Positions 21,356 through 32,102 of a DNA stretch of 64,000 nucleotides are shown here, in pieces. The notes under the pieces were generated by a model. It ran no database searches, was not told the DNA's origin, and saw only the letters and a list, made by a program, of their open reading frames with translations. Numbering within the stretch: position 1 is the stretch's first letter; each line of letters begins with the position of its first letter. The position numbers were made by a program, and so were the translations under genes. Origin of the DNA: Candidatus Eremiobacteria bacterium (GTDB lineage: Bacteria > Vulcanimicrobiota > Vulcanimicrobiia > Vulcanimicrobiales > Vulcanimicrobiaceae); the NCBI GenBank assembly GCA_963737065.1, contig CAVTRC010000002.1, positions 128,001 to 192,000 on the forward strand, in the 5' to 3' direction.

Positions 21356-21520
21356 ATGGCAAAAAAAGAGAATCGTGTGATGGTAGTCATGGCTTGCAGT
21401 GAATGCAAGCGCCGCAACTACAACACGCAAAAGAACAAACAAAAAACGACGGCCCGGCTAGAGCTGAGCAAATACTGCCGCTTCTGCCGCTGCCACCGCA
21501 ACCACCGCGAAACGAAGTAG
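21356..21520 (+). CDS. rpmG: 50S ribosomal protein L33 (Zn-ribbon, C+ type)
   Basis: Manual translation [54 protein letters not shown]. It is below the ORF-track size cutoff. Confidence 0.97.
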
Positions 21521-21540
21521 CTTTTTCAAGCCCGGCGTAC

Positions 21541-21616
21541 AGGGCGGTAGCTCAATTGGTAGAGTAGCGGTCTCCAAAATCGCCGGTTGCAGGTTCGAGT
21601 CCTGTCCGCCCTGCCA
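21541..21616 (+). tRNA. tRNA-Trp (anticodon CCA)
   Basis: 76 nt cloverleaf, loop CT-CCA-AA, encoded 3' CCA, canonical position before secE. Confidence 0.97.
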
Positions 21617-21639
21617 GAATTTTCCCCGGGAGTTGACGT

Positions 21640-21885
21640 TTGGTGAACGAGCAGAAGAAGTCGATCGGTCGAGGCGCAGCCACGGCTGCCGGACAACCCG
21701 CCGGCGGAGATTTCGTGCGCGGCGTGATCACAGAACTGCGTCGCGTCACCTGGCCGACGCGTGATGAATGGGTTTCCGCCACGCTGCTCACGATCGGATT
21801 GGTGGTCGGCATCGGGCTTTTTACGTACCTGCTAGATCTGGCGTTCGGCGCGCTGTTCCAATTCATCCATCCCGTCAACCTCTGA
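21640..21885 (+). CDS. secE: Preprotein translocase subunit SecE
   Basis: ELRRVTWPTR motif plus TM helix; synteny. Confidence 0.95.
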   Translation: MVNEQKKSIGRGAATAAGQPAGGDFVRGVITELRRVTWPTRDEWVSATLLTIGLVVGIGLFTYLLDLAFGALFQFIHPVNL

Positions 21886-21902
21886 GACGATGACCTAAGA
21901 CG

Positions 21903-22622
21903 ATGACCGAATTCGAACGCGAATACGACGGCACGGCCGTCGACGTCGAAACCGACGGCACGGCCGTCGACGTCGAAACTGACGAAGAAGTCGTAACGCA
22001 AGACCCCGGCGACGGCACCGCCGGCGTCTTTGATGTGCGCGATGAAGCGCCCGAAGAAGTCGCCGAACGGCCCGCGTCCACGAAGAAGGACAACCGCAAC
22101 TGGTTCGTGATCCACACGTATTCCGGTTACGAGAACAAAGTCAAAGCGAATCTCGAACGCCGCATTCACTCGATGGGCATGCAGGACAAAATTTTCCGCG
22201 TGCTCGTTCCGATGGAGGACGAAGTCGAGTTCAAAGACGGCAAGCGTAAAATCACCCCCAAGAAAGTCTTCCCGGGCTACGTGCTCGTCGAGATGATCAT
22301 GGACGACCAGTCGTGGTACGTCGTCCGCAACACGCAAGGTGTGACCGGCTTCGTCGGCAGTCCGGGACCGGGTGAAAAGCCGGTTCCGCTGCAAGAAAAA
22401 GAAGTGAAGACGATCCTCAAGCAGATGGGCATAGAGGCGCCGAAGCTCAAGATCGACTTCAAGAAGGGCGATCGCGTAAAGGTCACGTCGGGTCCGTTCT
22501 TCGATTTCACCGGCGTCGTCGACGAAATTCAACCCGAAAAAGAACGCCTGCGCGCGCTCATCTCGATCTTCGGCCGCGAAACTCCGGTCGAGCTTGAGTT
22601 CTTCCAGGTCGAAAAGGTATGA
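21903..22622 (+). CDS. nusG: Transcription termination/antitermination factor NusG with acidic N-terminal extension
   Basis: WFVIHTYSGYENKVK, FPGYVLVEM and KOW domain with IFGRETPVEL. Confidence 0.98.
   Translation: MTEFEREYDGTAVDVETDGTAVDVETDEEVVTQDPGDGTAGVFDVRDEAPEEVAERPASTKKDNRNWFVIHTYSGYENKVKANLERRIHSMGMQDKIFRVLVPMEDEVEFKDGKRKITPKKVFPGYVLVEMIMDDQSWYVVRNTQGVTGFVGSPGPGEKPVPLQEKEVKTILKQMGIEAPKLKIDFKKGDRVKVTSGPFFDFTGVVDEIQPEKERLRALISIFGRETPVELEFFQVEKV
21926..21979 (+). repeat. Perfect 27-bp tandem duplication (DGTAVDVET x2) in the nusG N-terminal extension
   Basis: cgacggcacggccgtcgacgtcgaaac occurs twice in tandem. Confidence 0.9.
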
Positions 22623-22629
22623 AGCGTTT

Positions 22630-22715
22630 GCATTTCCGTCCCTGGTGTCGTTGAGCCGGGGATCGCGTACCATAGTACGCTTCACCCCGTCTCGCCTAAC
22701 CAGGAACGAAAATGC
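22630..22715. repeat. Single diverged copy of the hairpin element that forms the array after rplL
   Basis: Shares CCCTGGTGTCGTYGAG...ATC-stem-TTCA...CTC.CCTAACCAGGA.CGAAA with the 106-bp unit; stems differ by compensatory changes. Confidence 0.85.
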
Positions 22716-22757
22716 TGCATGCTGCGCTGCGAGTCGATGGCGCCATAAGTGAAACTT

Positions 22758-22830
22758 TCTCACGGGAGAGACCCCGGCTCGTGAGATTGCTGAGGGGCAG
22801 AGCGCCGTAGGGCGACTCGTTAAGGAGAGA
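22758..22830 (+). promoter_or_regulatory. Putative rplK leader (possible L1 autoregulatory site)
   Basis: Structured GC hairpins (tctcacg...cgtgaga; cgcc-gtag-ggcg) directly before the AAGGAG RBS of rplK. Function inferred from position only. Confidence 0.35.
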
Positions 22831-22832
22831 AC

Positions 22833-23258
22833 ATGGCGAAGAAAGTTGTAGGCAAGATCGGCCTGCAAATTCCGGCCGGCAAGGCAACGCCTGCGCCGCC
22901 GATCGGTCCGGCACTCGGTCCGTATTCATTGAATATCATGGATTTCTGCAGGCAGTACAACGAACGCACTGCGTCGCAGGCGGGCATGATCATTCCGGTC
23001 GAGATTACCGTCTATGAAGACCGCACGTTCACATTCATCACGAAGACGCCGCCGGCGTCCTTTCTGATCAAACAGGCGCTGAAGATCGACGCCGGTTCGA
23101 AGGAGCCGAACCGCAATAAAGTCGGTAAATTGACGAACGCGCAACTCGAAGAGATCGCGAAAGTGAAGATGCCCGACATCAACGCGAACGACATCGATGC
23201 AGCGAAGAAGATCATTGCCGGAACAGCGCGCTCGATGGGCGTGGAGGTCGAAGCGTAA
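22833..23258 (+). CDS. rplK: 50S ribosomal protein L11
   Basis: [15 protein letters not shown] and GTARSMGV motifs. Confidence 0.99.
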
Positions 23259-23959
23259 TGCCGCAACATCACGGGAAGCGCTACAAGAACCTCGTCGCCA
23301 ACTACGATAAGAAGGCGCTGTACACACCGGCCGAAGCGATCGACCTCGTGAAGAAAAACGCGAATGCGAAATTTAACGAGACGGTCGAAGTGCACGTGCG
23401 TCTCGGTGTGGATCCGAAGAAGAGCGATCAGAACGTTCGCGGTACCGTCCTGCTGCCGCACGGCACCGGACGTACGGTCCGCGTGATCGCGTTCGCCAAA
23501 GGAGACAATGCGAAGGCGGCGCAAGAAGCGGGGGCCGATCTGGTCGGCGACCAGGATCTCATCGATCGGCTCAAGGGCGGCTTCACCGAGTTCGACGTCG
23601 CCGTCGCGACCCCGGACATGATGGCGCAGGTCGGTAAGGAACTCGGACGCATTCTCGCGCAAAAGATGCCGAACCCCAAGGCGGGCACGGTTTCGCCGAA
23701 TATCGCCGGCGCAATTCGCGACATCAAGGCCGGTAAGGTGGAGTACCGCCTCGACAAGACCGGTATCATTCACACGATCGTTGGGAAATCCCAGTTCGAT
23801 GCGGATCATCTGCTCGAGAACTTGACGACGCTGCTTGATGCGATCGTCCGCGCAAAGCCGGCGGCTGCGAAGGGGACCTACCTGCGCAGCGTGGCGCTCA
23901 CGAGCACCATGGGACCGGGCGTGAAAGTCGACCCCAATCGCATCCGCGCGACGGTATAG
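23258..23959 (+). CDS. rplA: 50S ribosomal protein L1
   Basis: [24 protein letters not shown] and STMGPG motifs. Confidence 0.99.
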
Positions 23960-23981
23960 ACCGAAGATCATCTGAAGCAGC

Positions 23982-24008
23982 AGGGCCCGGTTCAATGAAC
24001 CGGGCCCT
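23982..24008. terminator. Strong hairpin after rplA (possibly bidirectional terminator)
   Basis: AGGGCCCGGTTC-AAT-GAACCGGGCCCT, a 12-bp perfect stem between convergent genes. No U-tract. Confidence 0.6.
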
Positions 24009-24148
24009 CATGTTATGCCGGCCGTACGCCGCGACGGCCGCACGTTTTGTCCTTCGCGCGCCGAAGTGATTCGTCGTGGTTCGCAATCCTTACCCGGAAG
24101 ATCACACATGTTGCGCGCATTCGGTCCATTCGCAACATGGACGTCCAA

Positions 24149-24745
24149 TTAGTCGAGAAACGATACAACGCCGCTTCGTAAATCGTACGTTGCACCGGCC
24201 ACGCGCAGCCGGCCGGCGCGCATTGCCTCTGCGACGATGTTCGACCGTTGTGGAATTTCAGCGGCGTTACGGCGCACGTTCTCGATGACCGCGTCGTGCC
24301 AACGGTTGGTGCCTCGCGTGGCGCGCGCAGCCGGCGCTATTGCGTCGACGAGGCGCTGAATGGCACCCGGGAGCCGGGCGTCGGTGTCGACGTAGTCAAG
24401 CGCGGCCTTCACGGCTCCGCACTGCTCGTGACCCAGAACGACGACCAGCATTGAGTTGAGAAGCGCGACCGCATATTCCATCGTCGCTAATCCGTCCTCG
24501 TTGAGGAAATTGCCGGCGACGCGGACTACGAACAGATCCCCGGGCTCCCGATCGAAAATCGCCTCGACCGGGACACGCGAATCTGAACATCCGAGGACCG
24601 TCGCAAAGGGCGATTGTCCGTTGGCGAGGTTCGCGCGCGCAGGTGGCGGGAGCGGAGCGGCGGGACGCGCTTCTACGAAGCGGCGGTTCCCTTCGACAAG
24701 GCATCGGATCGCCGCATCGGGTGAATCCGGACGAGAAATCGGCAT
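24149..24745 (-). CDS. Beta-class carbonic anhydrase
   Basis: EGNRRF, CSDSRV, VRVAGN and GHEQCGAV zinc-ligand motifs. Confidence 0.95.
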   Translation of the reverse strand: MPISRPDSPDAAIRCLVEGNRRFVEARPAAPLPPPARANLANGQSPFATVLGCSDSRVPVEAIFDREPGDLFVVRVAGNFLNEDGLATMEYAVALLNSMLVVVLGHEQCGAVKAALDYVDTDARLPGAIQRLVDAIAPAARATRGTNRWHDAVIENVRRNAAEIPQRSNIVAEAMRAGRLRVAGATYDLRSGVVSFLD

Positions 24746-24991
24746 CTGTGGTGGGTCGGTCTCATGAGACGACCCTCCTTCGTATAAGCACTTCAGCTAT
24801 TGGGCGCTTCCCGACTTTCTGCTCAGCTTCTTAGGACTTCTCACCACATTGGGCCGAACCCGAATTTCCCTGTGCCTTTACGCACGCTTTACCCAATGTG
24901 GCTCTGTCGGTAAACCGCAGTGACGGCTAACATCGCAGATACCTGCACAATACTTGTCCCCGGTGAGGGACGAAAGGATCGCTTCTCAACG

Positions 24992-25423
24992 ATGAATCGC
25001 AAACTTCTTGCATTCACTTCTTTGTTTTCTGCGTTGACGTTCGCTGCCGCGATGCCGGCGCTCGCCCTCGAAGTGGGCACGACGAACACCGTTACGCAAA
25101 CGATTACCTCGGGCCGCCTCCAGATCAACGAAACCGACAATCATTGGGATTGCGGCTATCAGAACACGTTCCAAGTCTCCGGCGACGGCACGCTCCAAGC
25201 GGGTCTCGGCGGACAGGTCGGTGGTCAGATCAGCGAAAACCGTAATTCACTCTCGGGCGGCATCTTCGGCGACGGCGACGGATACATCGGACTGACGGGG
25301 TCGGGCACGGTCTCGTACACGCACCAAGACTTCTCGGATCACAACGTCACGAAGCAGTACTTCAACGGCACGCAAACCACGAGCAGCTCGACGATCCAGT
25401 CGGCAACCTTCGTCAACTTCTAA
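24992..25423 (+). CDS. Secreted T/G/Q/N-rich beta-strand protein, unknown function
   Basis: AAGGA RBS, Sec signal peptide (..AMPALA), alternating beta pattern, C-terminal Phe. Confidence 0.8.
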   Translation: MNRKLLAFTSLFSALTFAAAMPALALEVGTTNTVTQTITSGRLQINETDNHWDCGYQNTFQVSGDGTLQAGLGGQVGGQISENRNSLSGGIFGDGDGYIGLTGSGTVSYTHQDFSDHNVTKQYFNGTQTTSSSTIQSATFVNF

Positions 25424-25450
25424 GCACGCCGCAACAAGCAGAGGATTCCG

Positions 25451-26344
25451 ATGAAAAAGTTCGTTTCACTTGCGATCGCACTCGCTATGGGTGCGGCGGT
25501 CGCTCCGGCGTTAGCGCAAACCGTTCCTCCCACGCAGAACGTTAACGCGCCTACCTCAAGCAACAACGGCGTGTCCAATCCCGTAGGTGAAAACACCAAT
25601 GTCCAAGTCAATAACTCGTACTCGGGCATGAATTCCTTTGGAGTCGGAATCCAATGCGCAACGCCGTACCTCGCCGCCGGGTTTTTCAACAACAACACCG
25701 ATATCAATGGCGGCGGGGGGATCGGCGTTAATACGGGTGTCGGCGGCAACAATACGACGGGCGCAACGCTGCAAGTCGTCGTTCCGATCGGCGGCACTCA
25801 AGGCGCCAATTGTACGGCGCTCTCCAACGAAATAGTAAAGCAGCGTCAACTCGATACGCAGATTACGCTGATTCAACGATGCGCGGACTTCGCGAAGGCC
25901 GGCATCACGCTCGATGCGCGCGTGTATCCTCAACTGGCCAGCGCGTGTGCGGGCGTCAAAGTCGCAATGAGCGGCTCGAGCTCGTCGTCTTCCCCATCGG
26001 GCAGCAGCGACGAAGCCGCAGCATCGCTCCCGAAACTCATGGTCTACGCGAGTGACTCGAAATCGCCGTCTCAGCCCTCACAGCCTAAGGCGCAGTCGCC
26101 ACAGTCTAAGCCTCAGCCGGCGCAATCGAAGGCGCAGCCCTCGCAATCGAAGGCCCAGCCGGCTCTCACTGTGGCTGCCGCATGCACCTCTCCGAAAGAG
26201 CTGAGCGATCGCGATAAGAGCTTGCTCGAACAGTGGAAGATGAGTTCATCACACCAAAACTCGGCGCTTCAGAGATCGCTGACCGCGAAGTATGCAGCGC
26301 AGCTCGCAGCGGACTGCGTCGATCCCGTCGCTTGGAATCACTAA
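25451..26344 (+). CDS. Secreted Cys-containing protein with beta-hairpin, helical region and S/Q/P linker, unknown function
   Basis: GAGGA RBS, signal peptide (..APALA), six Cys, QSKAQP repeats. Confidence 0.85.
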   Translation: MKKFVSLAIALAMGAAVAPALAQTVPPTQNVNAPTSSNNGVSNPVGENTNVQVNNSYSGMNSFGVGIQCATPYLAAGFFNNNTDINGGGGIGVNTGVGGNNTTGATLQVVVPIGGTQGANCTALSNEIVKQRQLDTQITLIQRCADFAKAGITLDARVYPQLASACAGVKVAMSGSSSSSSPSGSSDEAAASLPKLMVYASDSKSPSQPSQPKAQSPQSKPQPAQSKAQPSQSKAQPALTVAAACTSPKELSDRDKSLLEQWKMSSSHQNSALQRSLTAKYAAQLAADCVDPVAWNH

Positions 26345-26766
26345 TGCGCAACGTTGCTGTCCTTGCACTCGCAATCGCGCTCGCCGGTTCGCTTCTCAGC
26401 GTGCCGGCGCGCGCGGCGAGCGGTTCCCCGATCGTCGTTCCGATGCCGGCGGGCGCGGTTACAATCGAGACGTGCCACTGGTCTGGGAACGACCGGCATT
26501 TTACGACGGATATCAAGCTTGCGGACCACACGAATTTGAAGATCGCGAAAGCACGTCTGCTCTTGACGTTTACGAGCTCGGAAGGCGAAACGGTTTCGAG
26601 CTACGTCGACATGGTAGGCGACGTCGTTCAGCCGGCGCAAGGCGTACCGCCGGTCGGGACGTGGAAGCGCAGTGCCTTTCCACGAGATCTTCAAACGCTG
26701 CGGTGCGGTCTCGTCGGCGTGAAGTTTCAGGGATATCCGAACGTCATCTACTCTGCGGTAAAATGA
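26344..26766 (+). CDS. Secreted hypothetical protein (beta-rich, two Cys)
   Basis: TAATG coupling to the upstream gene; signal peptide ending PARA. Confidence 0.8.
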   Translation: MRNVAVLALAIALAGSLLSVPARAASGSPIVVPMPAGAVTIETCHWSGNDRHFTTDIKLADHTNLKIAKARLLLTFTSSEGETVSSYVDMVGDVVQPAQGVPPVGTWKRSAFPRDLQTLRCGLVGVKFQGYPNVIYSAVK

Positions 26767-26773
26767 GGCTGCG

Positions 26774-27247
26774 ATGCGTCATGGTCGTTTCGCGGTCGGA
26801 TTCGCCTTACTAGTCCTCATTGCGGCATCGGCCGGTGCAAAGCCGGCGCCGCGAACAGGTCACGGTGAGTGTCCCGACATCCCGCACTACTACAGCCAAC
26901 AGGACGAACGCCAGATCCTGCGCGCACAGCGGCTAATACAAAGCGAACACTTCGGAACGTTCGAACGCAACCTTCATTTCGGACGGAACTTTCAACCGGC
27001 TGTACCCGTGCGCGAGATGGCCGAAGAGTTCGCCGTCTACGGCTACGAGTACGTCGGTCAGTATCATGGCTTCATGCTCTTTCAGCAGTACGCCAACGGC
27101 TATTTTGCAGTCGGCAAGCTCGCCCGATTCCTGGCTAAGACTGGCCTCGAGCAGCCGTACGCGACCCCCGAGCGCCTCGTGCTCCAGCCGCCCTTCATCG
27201 GTGGCGTCCCGATACCGCCGGATCTCGTAGCGTTTCCCTGCCGGTAA
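26774..27247 (+). CDS. Secreted hypothetical protein
   Basis: GAGG RBS, signal peptide, Cys near both ends of the mature chain. Confidence 0.75.
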   Translation: MRHGRFAVGFALLVLIAASAGAKPAPRTGHGECPDIPHYYSQQDERQILRAQRLIQSEHFGTFERNLHFGRNFQPAVPVREMAEEFAVYGYEYVGQYHGFMLFQQYANGYFAVGKLARFLAKTGLEQPYATPERLVLQPPFIGGVPIPPDLVAFPCR

Positions 27248-27276
27248 AGGCAGTCCGCTGTAGATGGGCAGTCCGG

Positions 27277-27306
27277 TTGCACGACCGGCTGCCGATGTGG
27301 TAGTCT
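27277..27306 (+). promoter_or_regulatory. Putative rplJ promoter
   Basis: TTGCAC-N18-TAGTCT with extended -10 TG, just upstream of the L10 leader. Confidence 0.55.
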
Positions 27307-27317
27307 ATGCGACGGCT

Positions 27318-27440
27318 CCGAAGACCGTAACCGGCCATTGGCCTTGATGTTCGCGAGAACGGTTACCGAGGCGCGTGATGGAATCTCCGCATTCGTGCGG
27401 CTTTCTCGTAGCGCCCTCCGGACGGATGGAGCGCTTTTTT
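27318..27440 (+). ncRNA. L10 (rplJ) leader, ribosomal protein autoregulatory RNA
   Basis: CCGAAGAC-CGTAACC...TTGAT-GTTC-GCGA-GAAC-GGTTAC-CGAGG followed by a hairpin and T-run, upstream of rplJ. Confidence 0.8.
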
Positions 27441-27482
27441 AATTCCCTTCGGGAATTGAACTGAAGAAAGCGGCTTAATTTC

Positions 27483-28016
27483 ATGCCAACCGCACGTAAA
27501 GAAGCAGCGGTACAAGAATTACGCGATCGGCTTGCCGAGTCGCAGAACTTGTTCTTGACCGACTTTGCGGGCCTCACCGTCGAAGATATTACGAAACTTC
27601 GCGGCGAGCTTCGCAAAGACGGCAGCACGTATGCCGTCGTCAAGAACACGCTCTTCAAAATTGCCGCCGGCGATGACATCGCCAAGCAGCTCGATGGGTT
27701 TTTGGCCGGCCCGACCGGTATCGTGTTCGCCGGCACCGACCCGGTTGCACCCGCGAAGGCAATCAAGCAGTTCGCAGACGACAGCAAGAAACTGGGCATC
27801 AAAGCGGCGATCGTCGACGGCAAGTTCGCCGACAAAACGCAAATCGAAGCACTTGCGGCGCTTCCGCCCAAACCCGAGCTCATCGCGAAACTCATTGGTT
27901 CACTCGCAAGCCCGCTACGCGGTCTCGTCGCCGTGCTTTCCGGCAATCAGAGCGGCCTCGTCCGCGTGCTCAACCAAATCCGCGAGCAAAAAGAAGCCGC
28001 GGGTTCGAACGCATAA
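27483..28016 (+). CDS. rplJ: 50S ribosomal protein L10
   Basis: GLTVEDITKLR, VVKNTL and LAALP motifs. Confidence 0.98.
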   Translation: MPTARKEAAVQELRDRLAESQNLFLTDFAGLTVEDITKLRGELRKDGSTYAVVKNTLFKIAAGDDIAKQLDGFLAGPTGIVFAGTDPVAPAKAIKQFADDSKKLGIKAAIVDGKFADKTQIEALAALPPKPELIAKLIGSLASPLRGLVAVLSGNQSGLVRVLNQIREQKEAAGSNA

Positions 28017-28040
28017 AGCATTCAAGGAGACTCCAGTATC

Positions 28041-28415
28041 ATGGCAGTTGCCGATCTCATCGATCAAATCGACAAACTTACCGTTCTCGAACTCGCGGAT
28101 CTCGTCAAGCAGCTTGAAGAGAAGTATGGCGTGACCGCGGCCGCTCCCGTCGCGATGATGGCTGCGCCCGGTGCCGGTGCCGCCGCTGCCCCGGCTGTTG
28201 AGAAGACCGAGTTCGACGTGATCCTGCAAGAGGCGGGCGCGGAGAAGATCAAGGTCATCAAGGCAGTGCGCGAAATCACGAGCCTTGGTCTCACCGAAGC
28301 GAAGGCGTTCGTTGAGAGCGCACCCAAGCCGGTCAAAGAAGGCGTACCGAAAGACGAAGCCGAGGCGGTTAAAAAGAAGCTCGAAGAAGCCGGCGCCAAA
28401 GTCGAAATCAAGTAA
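28041..28415 (+). CDS. rplL: 50S ribosomal protein L7/L12
   Basis: [25 protein letters not shown] and [11 protein letters not shown] motifs. Confidence 0.99.
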
Positions 28416-29259
28416 TTCGATGCGCTCTTCCGCCCTGGTGTCGTCGAGCGCGGCATCGTGGTCCAAAGACCACTTCAACCGCTCTCTCCTAACCAGGACG
28501 AAAGATCGCATCGAATTAAGGTTGGCATGGCGCTTCCGCCCGGGTGTCGTCGAGCGCGGCATCGTGGTCCAAAGACCACTTCAACCGCTCTCTCCTAACC
28601 AGGACGAAAGATCGCATCGAATTAAGGTTGGCATGGCGCTTCCGCCCGGGTGTCGTCGAGAGCGGCATCGTGGTCCAAAGACCACTTCAACCGCTCTCTC
28701 CTAACCAGGACGAAAGATCGCATCGAATTAAGGTTGGCATGGCGCTTCCGCCCGGGTGTCGTCGAGAGCGGCATCGTGGTCCAAAGACCACTTCAACCGC
28801 TCTCTCCTAACCAGGACGAAAGATCGCATCGAATTAAGGTTGGCATGGCGCTTCCGCCCGGGTGTCGTCGAGCGCGGCATCGTGGTCCAAAACCACTTCA
28901 ACCGCTCTCTCCTAACCAGGACGAAAGAATCGCGTCGAATTAAGTTTGGCATAGCGCCGCCCGGGTGTCGTCGAGCGCGGCATCGTGGTCCAAAGACCAC
29001 TTCAACCGCTCTCTCCTAACCAGAACGAAAGAATCGCGTCGAATTAAGTTTGGCATAGCGCCTCCGCCCTGGCGTCGTGGAGCGCGGCACCGTGGTCCAA
29101 AGACCACTTCAACCGCTCTCTCCTAACTAGGACGAAAGATCGCATCGAATTGCGATTCGACCGCGCTTCCGCCCGGGTGTCGTCGAGAGCGGCATCGTGG
29201 TCCAAAGACCACTTCAACCGCTCTCTCCTAACCAGGACGAAAGATCGCATCGGATTCGC
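28413..29259. repeat. Tandem array of 8 copies of a ~106-bp imperfect hairpin element
   Basis: Core GTGGTC-CAAA-GACCAC at 28458, 28564, 28670, 28776, 28882 (1-nt deletion), 28985, 29092 and 29197. The first unit, 28413-28518, is closed by TAATTCGATGCG/CGCATCGAATTA. Confidence 0.97.
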
Positions 29260-29312
29260 TCGAAGTCGAGCGGGACGGAAACGTCTCGCTCGTTTTCTTT
29301 TGAGGAGGATTC

Positions 29313-29828
29313 GTGTCGCACGAGACGCGGCTCAGCGCAACGTCGATTCTTATTTGGATCGCGATCGTTGCTTTCATTTTCTTTCGCGCGTCGCGGCGTC
29401 AACGCATCAGCATGGGACGGATGTGGGCGCAGGCGATTGTTCTAATGCTCCTCGGCGCGTTTGTGATCTACAGCTACGAACGGCTCAATCCGGCGCCCGC
29501 GTGGGAAGTCGCCGTTGCAATCGTCATTGGAGTTGCGGCGGGCATTCCCGTTGGAATCCTACGCGGGCATCACACGCAAGTTTCGGCCACGGATCGGCAC
29601 GGCGTGATGCAGCTCGGTCCGTCGTGGGCGACGGCCGGCATTTACGTCGGCGCGTTTGCGGTTCGCGCGCTCGTGCGTTATGTCTTTCCACCCAACAGTT
29701 CACTCGGCAGTGTCGTCGGTGACGCGTTCATGGTCTTTGCAATCGCGATCATCGGTACCACGTACTATATGGTGTACCGCAAATACGAAGCCCTCGATCG
29801 CGCGATGCCGGACACTGCGCGGGATTAG
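29313..29828 (+). CDS. CcdC/DUF1453-like membrane protein
   Basis: GAGGAGG RBS, about five TM segments, R.SR.QRI...RMW pattern. Confidence 0.7.
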   Translation: MSHETRLSATSILIWIAIVAFIFFRASRRQRISMGRMWAQAIVLMLLGAFVIYSYERLNPAPAWEVAVAIVIGVAAGIPVGILRGHHTQVSATDRHGVMQLGPSWATAGIYVGAFAVRALVRYVFPPNSSLGSVVGDAFMVFAIAIIGTTYYMVYRKYEALDRAMPDTARD

Positions 29829-30178
29829 CCGCTATACGTAGCGAGTTGCCATTCATTGCCGCTCGGGTCGGCGACCATCGCGCGACGGTCGCCGTAGGGC
29901 GTGTCACACGGTTCTTCGATTGAAGTGGCGCCTGCGGCAAGCGCACGCGCGTACGCCTCGTCGGCGTCGTCCACGTAGAGATATAGAAGACTCGACGTCG
30001 GCGCGCGCGTTCCGCTGCCGCTGACCATCACGTGCGAATCACCAAGACGCAGTATCGACGGCACCTCTGAACGGAACTCACCGGCGGCGCCAAACGCGTC
30101 GACCAAAAATGCGACGAGTCGCGCCGGGTCGTCTGCGACGAGACGCGGTGTGATCGTGTGCCAGCCTTCGGGTTTCAT
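29825..30178 (-). CDS. VOC/glyoxalase (PhnB-like) protein
   Basis: HTITPRL, LYLYVDDAD and YGDRRAMVADPSGNEWQL motifs. Confidence 0.92.
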   Translation of the reverse strand: MKPEGWHTITPRLVADDPARLVAFLVDAFGAAGEFRSEVPSILRLGDSHVMVSGSGTRAPTSSLLYLYVDDADEAYARALAAGATSIEEPCDTPYGDRRAMVADPSGNEWQLATYSG

Positions 30179-30188
30179 ACATCCGTTC

Positions 30189-30222
30189 TACCATACTTGA
30201 AACGATTGTTTCAAGTATGGTA
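30189..30222. promoter_or_regulatory. Perfect palindrome, probable TetR operator overlapping divergent promoters
   Basis: TACCATACTTGAAAC-GATT-GTTTCAAGTATGGTA, with 15-bp arms, between the divergent VOC and TetR genes. Confidence 0.85.
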
Positions 30223-30232
30223 CGGTCGGGGC

Positions 30233-30835
30233 GTGACCCGGCCCGCCGACGCACACCGCCGTGCGCAATTGCTCGACGATATCATCGACTACGTCGTCGA
30301 AAACGGTTTGAGCGACCTCTCATTGCGGCCGCTCGCCGATGCGGTCGGAGCAAGCCCGCGGGTGCTGCTCTATTACTTCGGCGGCACGAAAGCGCAACTG
30401 ATCCAGGCGATCATTGCCGGCGTTCGCGAAAGGCAGGTGAAAGGATTCGCCGCTCTGCGGAGTGCGCGCCATGCGTCTGCGCGCGATGCGTGCGTCGCCG
30501 CGTGGAAGATCATGACGCAGCCGCGGCTCCAACCACTCTTTCGATTTTTCTTTGAACTGTTCGGTTTGGCGTTGCGCGATCGAAAAACATACGGCGACTT
30601 CCTCCATCATGCCGTCGAAGACTGGATCGTCTTTTTCTCCGCGCCGCTGATTGCGGCGGGTGTTCCGAAGTCCGAGGCGCGCGCACGCGGGACGATAATC
30701 CTCGCTGCGTTTCGTGGATTTCTCATGGATCTATGCGCGACGGGCGACCGAGCGCGGATCGATCGCGCCGTTGAACTGTGGTTAGATTCGCTCGATCGGT
30801 CAGAAACAAAAAAGGAGCTGCGCCGTGCTCAATAA
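30233..30835 (+). CDS. TetR/AcrR family transcriptional regulator
   Basis: GLSDLSLRPLADAVGASPRVLLYYFG HTH. Confidence 0.93.
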   Translation: MTRPADAHRRAQLLDDIIDYVVENGLSDLSLRPLADAVGASPRVLLYYFGGTKAQLIQAIIAGVRERQVKGFAALRSARHASARDACVAAWKIMTQPRLQPLFRFFFELFGLALRDRKTYGDFLHHAVEDWIVFFSAPLIAAGVPKSEARARGTIILAAFRGFLMDLCATGDRARIDRAVELWLDSLDRSETKKELRRAQ

Positions 30836-32102
30836 GCGCTCCGCGGCGATGACGTTCATCTTCGTGACCGTCGTTCTCGACATGCTCGCGCTCGGCATCA
30901 TCATTCCCGTGTTTCAGCCGCTGATCTTGATGTTTGCGCACGGAAGTTATGCGAACGCATCGATCTACAGCGGCATCTTCGCTACGATTTTTGCTGTCGT
31001 TCAATTCTTCGCATCACCCGTACTCGGCACGCTCTCCGACCGGTTCGGACGCCGTCCGATCGTATTGCTCTCCAATATCGGAACGAGCGTCGATTACGCG
31101 ATCCTCGCGCTTGCACCGAATCTCGAGTGGCTCTTCGTCGGGCGCGTGCTTTCAGGTGCAACGACGGCGAGCATCACGGTTGCAAGCGCATACGTCGCCG
31201 ACGTCACGCCGGCCGAGAAGCGCGCGGGCGCGTACGGCATGATCAGCGCCGCGTTTGGTATCGGCTTCGTCGTCGGTCCGGCGATCGGCGGTCTGCTGGG
31301 CGCGCACGACCCGCGGCTGCCGTTTTGGGTTGCCGGCGCGCTTAGTCTTGTAAATTTTTTCTACGGGCTCTTCGTACTGCCCGAGTCGCTCGGTCGCGAA
31401 CATCGCAACACGTTTTCGTGGAAGCGTGCAAATCCACTCGGCTCCCTGAAAATGCTCCGTCGCCACCACGAGCTATCGGGGCTCGCAATCGTGCTGCAAA
31501 TTGGGTACGTCGCGCACGAAGCGCTTCCGCAGCTCTTCGTGCTCTATGCGCTGTACGCGTTTGCGTGGACGATGCGAACGATCGGCGCGGCTCTTGCGGC
31601 GGTCGGGATCTTGACGATCGTCATTTCGGGATTCGTCATTCAACGCGTCGTCGATCGTTTCGGAGAACGCAAGGCGCTGCTGGCCGGTTTGTTCTTCGGC
31701 GCGGTCGGCTTTTGGATGTACAGCGGAAGCCCGTTGCTTTTCTGGATCGGTATGCCGATCAACATGTTGTGGATGATTGCCGGATCGTCGTCACAAGCAA
31801 TCATGACCCGGCGTGTCGCCAAAAACGAGCAAGGCGAACTGCAGGGCGCGATCAACATGTTGCGCAGCGTCGGCATGATCGTCGGTCCGCCGATCTTCAC
31901 CGGAATCTTTGCGTATTCGATCGGGCCCGCACATGCATGGAAGGCGCCCGGTTTGGGGTGGGTCGCGGGTGCTCTGCTCCTGTTCGTTTCGATTATTGTC
32001 GCCGCGCGCGTCACATCACCGCGCGACGACGTGCGCGAGCCGGTCGACACCGCGGCGACGATCGAGGAAACCGTACCGGCAGAGGTTCCGCTTACGCAAT
32101 AG
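30825..32102 (+). CDS. TCR/Tet family MFS efflux transporter
   Basis: LDMLALGIIIP, GTLSDRFGRRP, GPAIGG and QGELQG motifs; about 12 TM segments. Confidence 0.93.
   Translation: MLNKRSAAMTFIFVTVVLDMLALGIIIPVFQPLILMFAHGSYANASIYSGIFATIFAVVQFFASPVLGTLSDRFGRRPIVLLSNIGTSVDYAILALAPNLEWLFVGRVLSGATTASITVASAYVADVTPAEKRAGAYGMISAAFGIGFVVGPAIGGLLGAHDPRLPFWVAGALSLVNFFYGLFVLPESLGREHRNTFSWKRANPLGSLKMLRRHHELSGLAIVLQIGYVAHEALPQLFVLYALYAFAWTMRTIGAALAAVGILTIVISGFVIQRVVDRFGERKALLAGLFFGAVGFWMYSGSPLLFWIGMPINMLWMIAGSSSQAIMTRRVAKNEQGELQGAINMLRSVGMIVGPPIFTGIFAYSIGPAHAWKAPGLGWVAGALLLFVSIIVAARVTSPRDDVREPVDTAATIEETVPAEVPLTQ

Follow-up and report, generated by a model that had tools for sequence, protein, structure and literature searches.

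Hairpin repeats abutting stop codons behind nusG and rplL in a Candidatus Eremiobacteria genome probably belong to a family of palindromes resembling miniature transposable elements

What kind of element sits directly behind two genes of a bacterial transcription and ribosomal protein cluster, once as a single copy and once as an array? We analysed 64,000 nucleotides of Candidatus Eremiobacteria bacterium (GenBank assembly GCA_963737065.1, contig CAVTRC010000002.1, positions 128,001 to 192,000 of the forward strand; hereafter the window), in which an unannotated hairpin sequence follows nusG and rplL. [quoted passage not shown] By their family, structure, strand asymmetry, docking on gene ends, insertion polymorphism and distribution, the copies are structured MITE/REP-like repeats, and the nine of them probably represent a family of non-coding palindromes, ~105 nt long, with the behaviour of miniature transposable elements. 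The element is no dedicated regulator of the ribosomal operon.

Gene order in this part of the window is tRNA-Trp, secE, nusG, rplK, rplA, ~3.5 kb of unassigned open reading frames (ORFs), rplJ and rplL. One copy after nusG and an array after rplL had been reported, and both were recovered: Tandem Repeats Finder places the array at 28427-29256 (7.9 tandem units, period 106 bp, 94% matches), starting 11 nt past the rplL stop, and the single homologous copy in the nusG-rplK spacer starts 10 nt past the nusG stop (22622). The homology of that spacer to the array unit, also part of the original description, holds under R1, a covariance model that we built on the better-folding strand. All window copies have in common an 81-nt three-helix core, and the outer stem of array unit 1, AATTCGATGCG / CGCATCGAATT, extends into the rplL TAA stop. 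The features are as follows.

21903..22622, plus strand: nusG, the gene preceding the solo copy (Pfam NusG and KOW)
22630..22715, minus strand (the better-folding strand): solo element between nusG and rplK, model core 22633-22713 (R1, 95.3 bits)
28041..28415, plus strand: rplL, the gene preceding the array (Pfam Ribosomal_L12 and L12_N)
28426..28506, minus strand: core of array unit 1 (R1, 94.6 bits)
28532..28612, minus strand: core of array unit 2 (R1, 88 bits)
28638..28718, minus strand: core of array unit 3 (R1, 89.6 bits)
28744..28824, minus strand: core of array unit 4 (R1, 89.6 bits)
28850..28929, minus strand: core of array unit 5, with a 1-base deletion in the apical loop (R1, 77.1 bits)
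28953..29033, minus strand: core of array unit 6 (R1, 77.3 bits)
29060..29140, minus strand: core of array unit 7 (R1, 79.6 bits)
29165..29245, minus strand: core of array unit 8 (R1, 89.6 bits)
29267..29292, plus strand: terminator-like hairpin and T-run directly 3' of the array, 11 pairs, tail TTTTCTTTTG

The stem changes, conserved internal loops and outer CCTGG/CCAGG that first drew attention to these copies are all visible in the alignment. From 11 copies of this genome (3.08 Mb; G000 below), RNAalifold predicted a single long hairpin with compensatory changes in 23 of 25 pairs. Pair statistics were computed on a hand-set three-helix structure of 29 pairs, with shuffles and slid partners as controls; in the same 11 copies, changes on both sides occurred at 25 of the 29 pairs, and paired cells reached 92.2%, against 67.1% in shuffles (none of 500 reached the observed value) and 39-47% with slid partners. 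A set of 38 distinct copies taken from other phyla shows covariation at 27 of the 29 pairs, with 88.4% of cells paired versus 58.6% after shuffling. The claims of covariation and of a selected single-strand structure are both supported by these results.

The two strands do not fold equally well. The solo copy has a predicted folding energy of -51.4 kcal/mol on the minus strand (z -9.05) versus -42.5 on the plus strand, and the array unit -48.6 versus -35.3 kcal/mol; across 87 copies, the model strand was the more stable in 84 with RNA parameters and in 80 with DNA parameters. Of all stem cells, 7-10% are wobble pairs. G.U exceeded A.C by 73 to 12 and 110 to 9 in model-aligned cores, where the alignments lean to the model strand, and by 64 to 30 (p=6e-4) in flank helices outside the model, counted by a strand-neutral rule. 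Rfam 15 gave no match at the element on either strand, in the window at gathering score or in 22500-29400 at E<=10, and a literature search found no description of this family, which is weak evidence of its absence from print. The alignment, covariation, fold and lack of an Rfam match therefore bear out the initial observation, including the better fold of the minus strand. We propose that one strand, the one antisense to the docked gene (the gene whose end a copy adjoins), is under selection for its single-stranded fold. A constraint of this strand-specific kind would suggest that an intermediate exists as ssDNA or RNA or that a trans-acting factor reads the loops.

Each hairpin joins the conserved 81-nt core to a copy-specific outer stem of ~11-13 bp. 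Its length was determined by a helix-walk with a mismatched-flank control; the outermost pair of the minimum free energy fold overestimates it (~25 nt per side). Flank pairing beyond the core extended a median of 11 nt (quartiles 9-13) on each side, against 5 in the controls, and the whole element is therefore ~105 nt. These paired flanks are the terminal inverted repeats looked for in a MITE. Within the core, the internal loops are purine-rich on one strand, with RAGGCG opposite CAACGAMG and CGAAG opposite YGAG. Outer stems that are copy-specific yet paired, and that often take in the stop and last codons, are also what would arise if the covariation came from arm-to-arm DNA copying (quasi-palindrome template switching) with no selection on a folded molecule, a process that would keep the arms complementary and lengthen them into adjoining DNA. 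We regard this origin as improbable: asymmetric internal loops would be erased by such copying, yet they are conserved across phyla, and perfect copying predicts neither wobble pairs at the observed frequency nor their strand bias. Known mutation biases should place G.T on the other strand, which also weighs against arm copying.

Is the hairpin confined to this operon? R1 detected 28 matches at 16 loci in G000, and here the proposal of a REP/MITE-like dispersed repeat stands, as opposed to a single RNA gene. Matches were present in 25 of 41 relatives, at 1-46 per genome. A phylum-wide sample of 151 genomes contained 60 with matches, nearly all of them from one family (55 of its 70 genomes) and its sister family (2 of 2). 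In G000, nine of the 16 loci lie beside translation/transcription or stable RNA genes (p=4e-9). In G169, a relative that carries 25 copies, they dock on ordinary genes, just one of the 22 docked genes being a classic high-expression gene. We thus rejected specificity for ribosomal or highly expressed genes, and the enrichment in G000 may therefore reflect which old copies survive.

The same distribution bears on a regulatory RNA dedicated to secE-nusG / rplKAJL, acting as a leader or attenuator or as a cis-antisense small RNA (sRNA). In keeping with this explanation, that gene cluster contains both window sites, and they point the same way. We nevertheless consider it highly unlikely, since the nusG site lacks the element in the rest of the genus, since the genome-wide count of copies and their orientations, a check that the initial annotation had called for, found unrelated genes ahead of copies both here and in other phyla, and since a promoter scan of both strands of 21500-30000 came up empty (2.2 promoter-like sites in shuffles). 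The suggested antisense regulator fares no better at the tuf-rpsJ copies, beside which the spacer is not conserved. Four expression runs each covered 0.05-0.06 of the window, as contigs without strand. Nor do the copies read as intrinsic terminators: a scan of 21500-30000 put no terminator-like site at the array units or the solo copy, and a T-run follows the hairpin in only some of the other copies. The best-scoring terminator-like site of that region is the hairpin at 29267-29292, after the array, which would therefore lie inside the rplJL 3' untranslated region (UTR).

The family also extends well beyond the phylum. A strict sequence pattern matched 113 stretches in a species collection, in records titled Vulcanimicrobiota or Candidatus Eremiobacterota, mainly Baltobacteraceae, and also in records of Campylobacterota, Gammaproteobacteria, Coriobacteriia, Limnocylindria (Chloroflexota), Rhodospirillales and DPANN archaea; viral contigs gave no match to the pattern. 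We put 37 loci to R1, 36 of them titled as other phyla, 'bacterium' or 'metagenome', together with L095, which has a relative-like core. All fit the model end to end except L039, which fits in part only. The GC content of these 37 loci ranges over 33-77%, like that of their hosts, with the same loop sequences, and genomes outside the phylum hold from 1 to 22 copies. Copies in other phyla come after tRNA, signal recognition particle (SRP) RNA, rplA, rpsD, EF-2 or groEL genes or lie in ribosomal RNA (rRNA) spacers, and one archaeal copy sits between GatD- and GatE-type genes.

We examined docking at 107 loci from many genomes, with gene ends that come from a codon-statistics ORF caller and not from curated annotation, a caution against the transposon-like interpretation. 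The core adjoins a gene end within 45 nt at 74 of these loci. Where a single gene end is abutted, 50 cores are antisense to the docked gene and 8 are sense; another 16 of the 107 lie between two convergent gene ends, as do 13 of 24 in G169. The remaining 33 cores adjoin no called gene end within 45 nt, and the RNA-gene neighbours described above come from separate loci. Among the 50 antisense cores, 49 lie -1 to 15 nt from the stop, and at least 1 nt of the stop codon lies inside the helix in 71 of 86 copies. The stops of docked genes are TAG in 42 cases, TAA in 30 and TGA in 8, although TGA accounts for 36% genome-wide (p=8e-8). Overall stop use in G000 is near even (TGA 997, TAA 901 and TAG 839 among 2737 predicted genes), and TAG is unusually common for 60% GC.

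In other phyla, the better-folding strand is likewise antisense where copies follow genes for tRNA or SRP RNA or occupy rRNA spacers; one gammaproteobacterial record holds four copies in rRNA spacers, all antisense. An exception is the 16S-23S spacer copy of G000, which is sense-oriented (G000:C2:413590-413670; locus L157, 3591-3671). We considered a replication-orientation rule and rejected it. Lagging-strand polarity holds at 14 of 16 loci of G000, a genome in which dnaA at C1:1504204 coincides with the GC-skew minimum, but at just 15 of 24 copies in single-contig G169. Within individual contigs of a multi-copy genome, copies switch between the two orientations in step with gene strand, and we read the lagging-strand pattern in G000 as a by-product of gene co-orientation.

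The flanks hold a second regularity. Of 131 GC-rich copies, 47 have the first TA of the gene-distal flank 8-12 nt out, where ~10% is expected, and 32 have symmetric TA on both flanks, compared with 12.7 in controls. One expanded subfamily has the common termini GGAAGC.../...GCTTCC in the arrangement YTA-GGAAGC...GCTTCC-YTA, and direct TTAG...TTAG or CTAG...CTAG brackets enclose some copies. Transposases of the IS630/mariner type target TA, and those of the IS5/Harbinger type target YTAR. On sequence grounds, docking together with TA or YTAR brackets looks like the signature of insertion at such sites, a putative target preference that would explain how copies land on TAA and TAG stops with the stop kept intact.

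Comparison of orthologous sites points to gain and loss. In six other genomes of the genus (G001-G006), the nusG site carries no copy: the nusG-rplK spacer is only 12-14 nt long in G001, G002, G003 and G005, without the element, and in G004 and G006 it has a different sequence and no model match. The solo copy is thus specific to G000 among the seven genomes, and a role specific to the ribosomal and transcription operon, as first suggested, does not survive this comparison or the ordinary docked genes of G169. A relative with 93% identity lacks one G169 copy, that at an RmuC-gene site, from the corresponding position, and another, at the L175 site, occurs in two genomes but not in a third; with nusG-rplK, these make three loci with presence/absence polymorphism at orthologous sites. 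The rplL copy is common to G001, G005 and G006; the 3-kb loci from G001 and G006 each contain it once, and the array of eight units therefore arose by local amplification.

Further copies add detail to this picture. G000 has a second array in the divergent nrdR-dprA spacer (G000:C1:991698-992009, locus L150), made of three truncated 77-nt units and one full copy, and a copy at this site is conserved in G001 and G002. The copies at G000:C1:474461-474541 and G000:C2:328430-328510 have in common a homologous 3' flank of ~45 nt with a small hairpin, which suggests composite modules. Near secE/tRNA-Trp, ~1 kb upstream of the nusG stop, G001, G003 and G004 hold a sense-oriented copy that G000 does not have, at the following positions.

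L205, 2556-2640, sense: copy near secE/tRNA-Trp
L207, 2552-2634, sense: copy near secE/tRNA-Trp
L208, 666-748, sense: copy near secE/tRNA-Trp

From these patterns we infer a target preference, a mode of movement and a possible effect on host messenger RNA (mRNA). The repeat would be non-autonomous and would insert, or would once have inserted, at TA or YTAR on stop codons, where an insert may be tolerated in 3' UTRs. Slippage may then amplify it locally, as would have happened when the rplL copy gave rise to eight tandem units upstream of the operon terminator. The nusG copy would be an insertion seen only in G000 of its genus, and the rplL copy, common within the genus, would be older. The single-stranded fold of one strand would be kept by a putative reader.

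Several findings weigh against this interpretation, and the first concern the enzyme that would move the repeat. Among the enzymes searched, we found no autonomous partner or parent insertion sequence with matching ends. The IS630-type transposase domain PF13358 occurs in none of five multi-copy genomes; PF01609 occurs in three of the five, with no R1 match beside it and no matching ends. There is no TnpB, and PF07282 is absent from G000. The best integron integrase match falls below the cut-off (TIGR02249, 58.8 bits versus 265), and the sole reverse-transcriptase match in G000 is broken by two in-frame TGA codons (G000:C1:1823877-1824272). Moreover, DDE cut-and-paste transposition gives no reason for strand-specific G.U pairs, covarying stems or an orientation of 50 versus 8. 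The flanks are also less regular than insertion would lead one to expect: the TA bracket is strictly symmetric in only the 32 of 131 copies noted above, and the nusG copy shows no clear TA duplication, nor do many old copies.

A second set of contrary findings concerns persistence. Classic MITEs have conserved termini, whereas here the internal core, with its loops RAGGCG/CAACGAMG and CGAAG/YGAG, stays the same from phylum to phylum and the ends are variable. Copies cluster by locus and not by genome, and some persist at one locus, namely tuf-rpsJ (four genera), rpsR-rplI (three genomes), nrdR-dprA (three), rplL and ahcY-metK; those at tuf-rpsJ, rpsR-rplI and nrdR-dprA retain both loops and pairing. 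The four tuf-rpsJ copies pair via different sequences, and the neighbouring spacer is unalignable. Judged from these alignments, such locus-wise retention looks like host-level purifying selection rather than the decay of selfish inserts.

Retention of this kind would be expected of a cis element that serves the host, with mobility merely its mode of acquisition. It might act in the mRNA as a 3'-UTR hairpin at the edge of the stopped ribosome (an exonuclease barrier, RNase III site or attenuator) or, through the opposite strand, keep antisense or convergent transcription out of the docked gene. Orthologous copies that last across genera with compensatory changes and conserved loops favour such a function, as do the neighbours of copies, both the nine G000 loci near translation/transcription or stable RNA genes and the tRNA, SRP RNA, rplA, rpsD, EF-2, groEL and rRNA-spacer sites of other phyla. 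The convergent-gene gaps that the element fills and the placement of the array between the rplL stop and the operon terminator point the same way. However, in 50 of 58 single-abutting cases the selected strand runs antisense to the docked gene, and the mRNA therefore has the weaker fold and pyrimidine loops. Neither 21500-30000 nor the tuf-rpsJ spacers yielded a conserved opposite-strand promoter, the docked genes of the expanded subfamily are ordinary, six genus members do without the nusG copy, and only some copies have the following T-run. We therefore judge a host-serving element unlikely, if still a serious contender.

The known systems closest to the transposon-like interpretation are MITEs, for which terminal repeats, target duplications, long hairpins, 3'-UTR positions and effects of RNase III/E are described in PMC3184786 and PMC10969869. 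ERIC/IRU, Correia/NEMIS and QMITE2 are alike with the element in their size of ~100-150 bp, whole-element hairpin, intergenic or 3'-UTR sites, variable copy number, presence/absence polymorphism, TA-type brackets and co-transcription with the upstream gene (PMC10969869, PMC3184786). The likeness to ERIC/Correia-type MITEs is one of description. The element differs in that conservation, which spans phyla and includes archaea, lies in its core instead of its termini; its stems covary, its wobbles are strand-biased, its orientation is skewed and no parent insertion sequence was found. TA at both ends, with some TTAG or CTAG pairs, also recalls MITEs of the IS5/Harbinger or IS630/mariner type. In contrast to those, it lacks the transposases listed above with matching ends, and double-strand cut-and-paste leaves its single-strand fold constraint unexplained.

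REP/BIME/REPIN repeats are, like the element, strand-specific folded dispersed palindromes that are sometimes clustered, and recognition of a single strand is plausible. A REP/BIME-type element moved by a REP-associated tyrosine transposase (RAYT, of the Y1 HUH type) would explain why the palindrome is dispersed and intergenic, folds in a strand-specific manner and occurs in tandem clusters. It is very improbable here, and this part of the initial proposal falls away: the RAYT/Y1_Tnp domain PF01797 is absent from G000 (95% complete), occurs in one of 24 family genomes and is commoner (five of 11) in a sister family lacking the element, which also counts against a transposon-like origin by this route. 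The element is 81-105 nt rather than 20-40 nt long, with three helices and conserved internal loops, and is present at 16 loci rather than hundreds. REPs carry a conserved GTAG or CGTC head motif, according to PMC3733652. The element has no such head or size, with its 81-nt core, ~105-nt hairpin and ends that are YTA-GGAAGC or copy-specific.

Integron attC sites offer a different comparison. Their hairpin base carries paired boxes of the consensus RYYYAAC / GTTRRRY. As read from our alignments, GTT/AAC boxes are not conserved in the element outside this phylum, and their order is flipped. The folded strand of attC is reported to be antisense to the upstream ORF (PMC5371416, PMC2727003), and there is a further resemblance in the imperfect hairpin, the abutting ORF stop and a structure kept above sequence. 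The element differs in having no integrase above cut-off and no cassette arrays. Likenesses to SRP RNA, k-turn, sarcin-ricin, hairpin-ribozyme, boxA and attC motifs were considered and rejected, as their defining features misfit the alignments.

Tentatively, we suggest that the conserved 81-nt core may itself be a cross-domain module, whose strand antisense to the docked gene is read as ssDNA or RNA by a trans-acting factor. If so, it would represent a new class of single-strand-dependent mobile element or a domesticated signal where transcription and translation end. Hairpin repeats docked on stop codons would then be one widespread structured family in distant bacteria and some archaea. This would bear on 3'-UTR biology in uncultured phyla and on efforts to find new systems of single-strand transposition or recognition. 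It would also affect annotation, as covariation this strong mimics structured RNAs and the repeats could be confused with riboswitch-like or sRNA genes.

The surrounding genes of the window have features of their own. The ~3.5-kb gap between rplKA and rplJL (23960-27482) holds ORFs at 24920-25423, 25451-26344 and 26774-27247 without a Pfam match, a 21-nt tandem repeat at 26072-26161 and a weak L10_leader match at 27300-27449 (31.5 bits, under the gathering score of 44). No rpoB or rpoC follows rplL; the region 29313-32102, beyond the array and the terminator, instead encodes a 171-aa product lacking any Pfam match, a TetR-type protein and an MFS transporter. The product of nusG has an N-terminal extension of ~65 residues ahead of the NusG domain (21903-22100), and the extension holds a 27-nt tandem repeat (21913-21984, ~2.5 copies).

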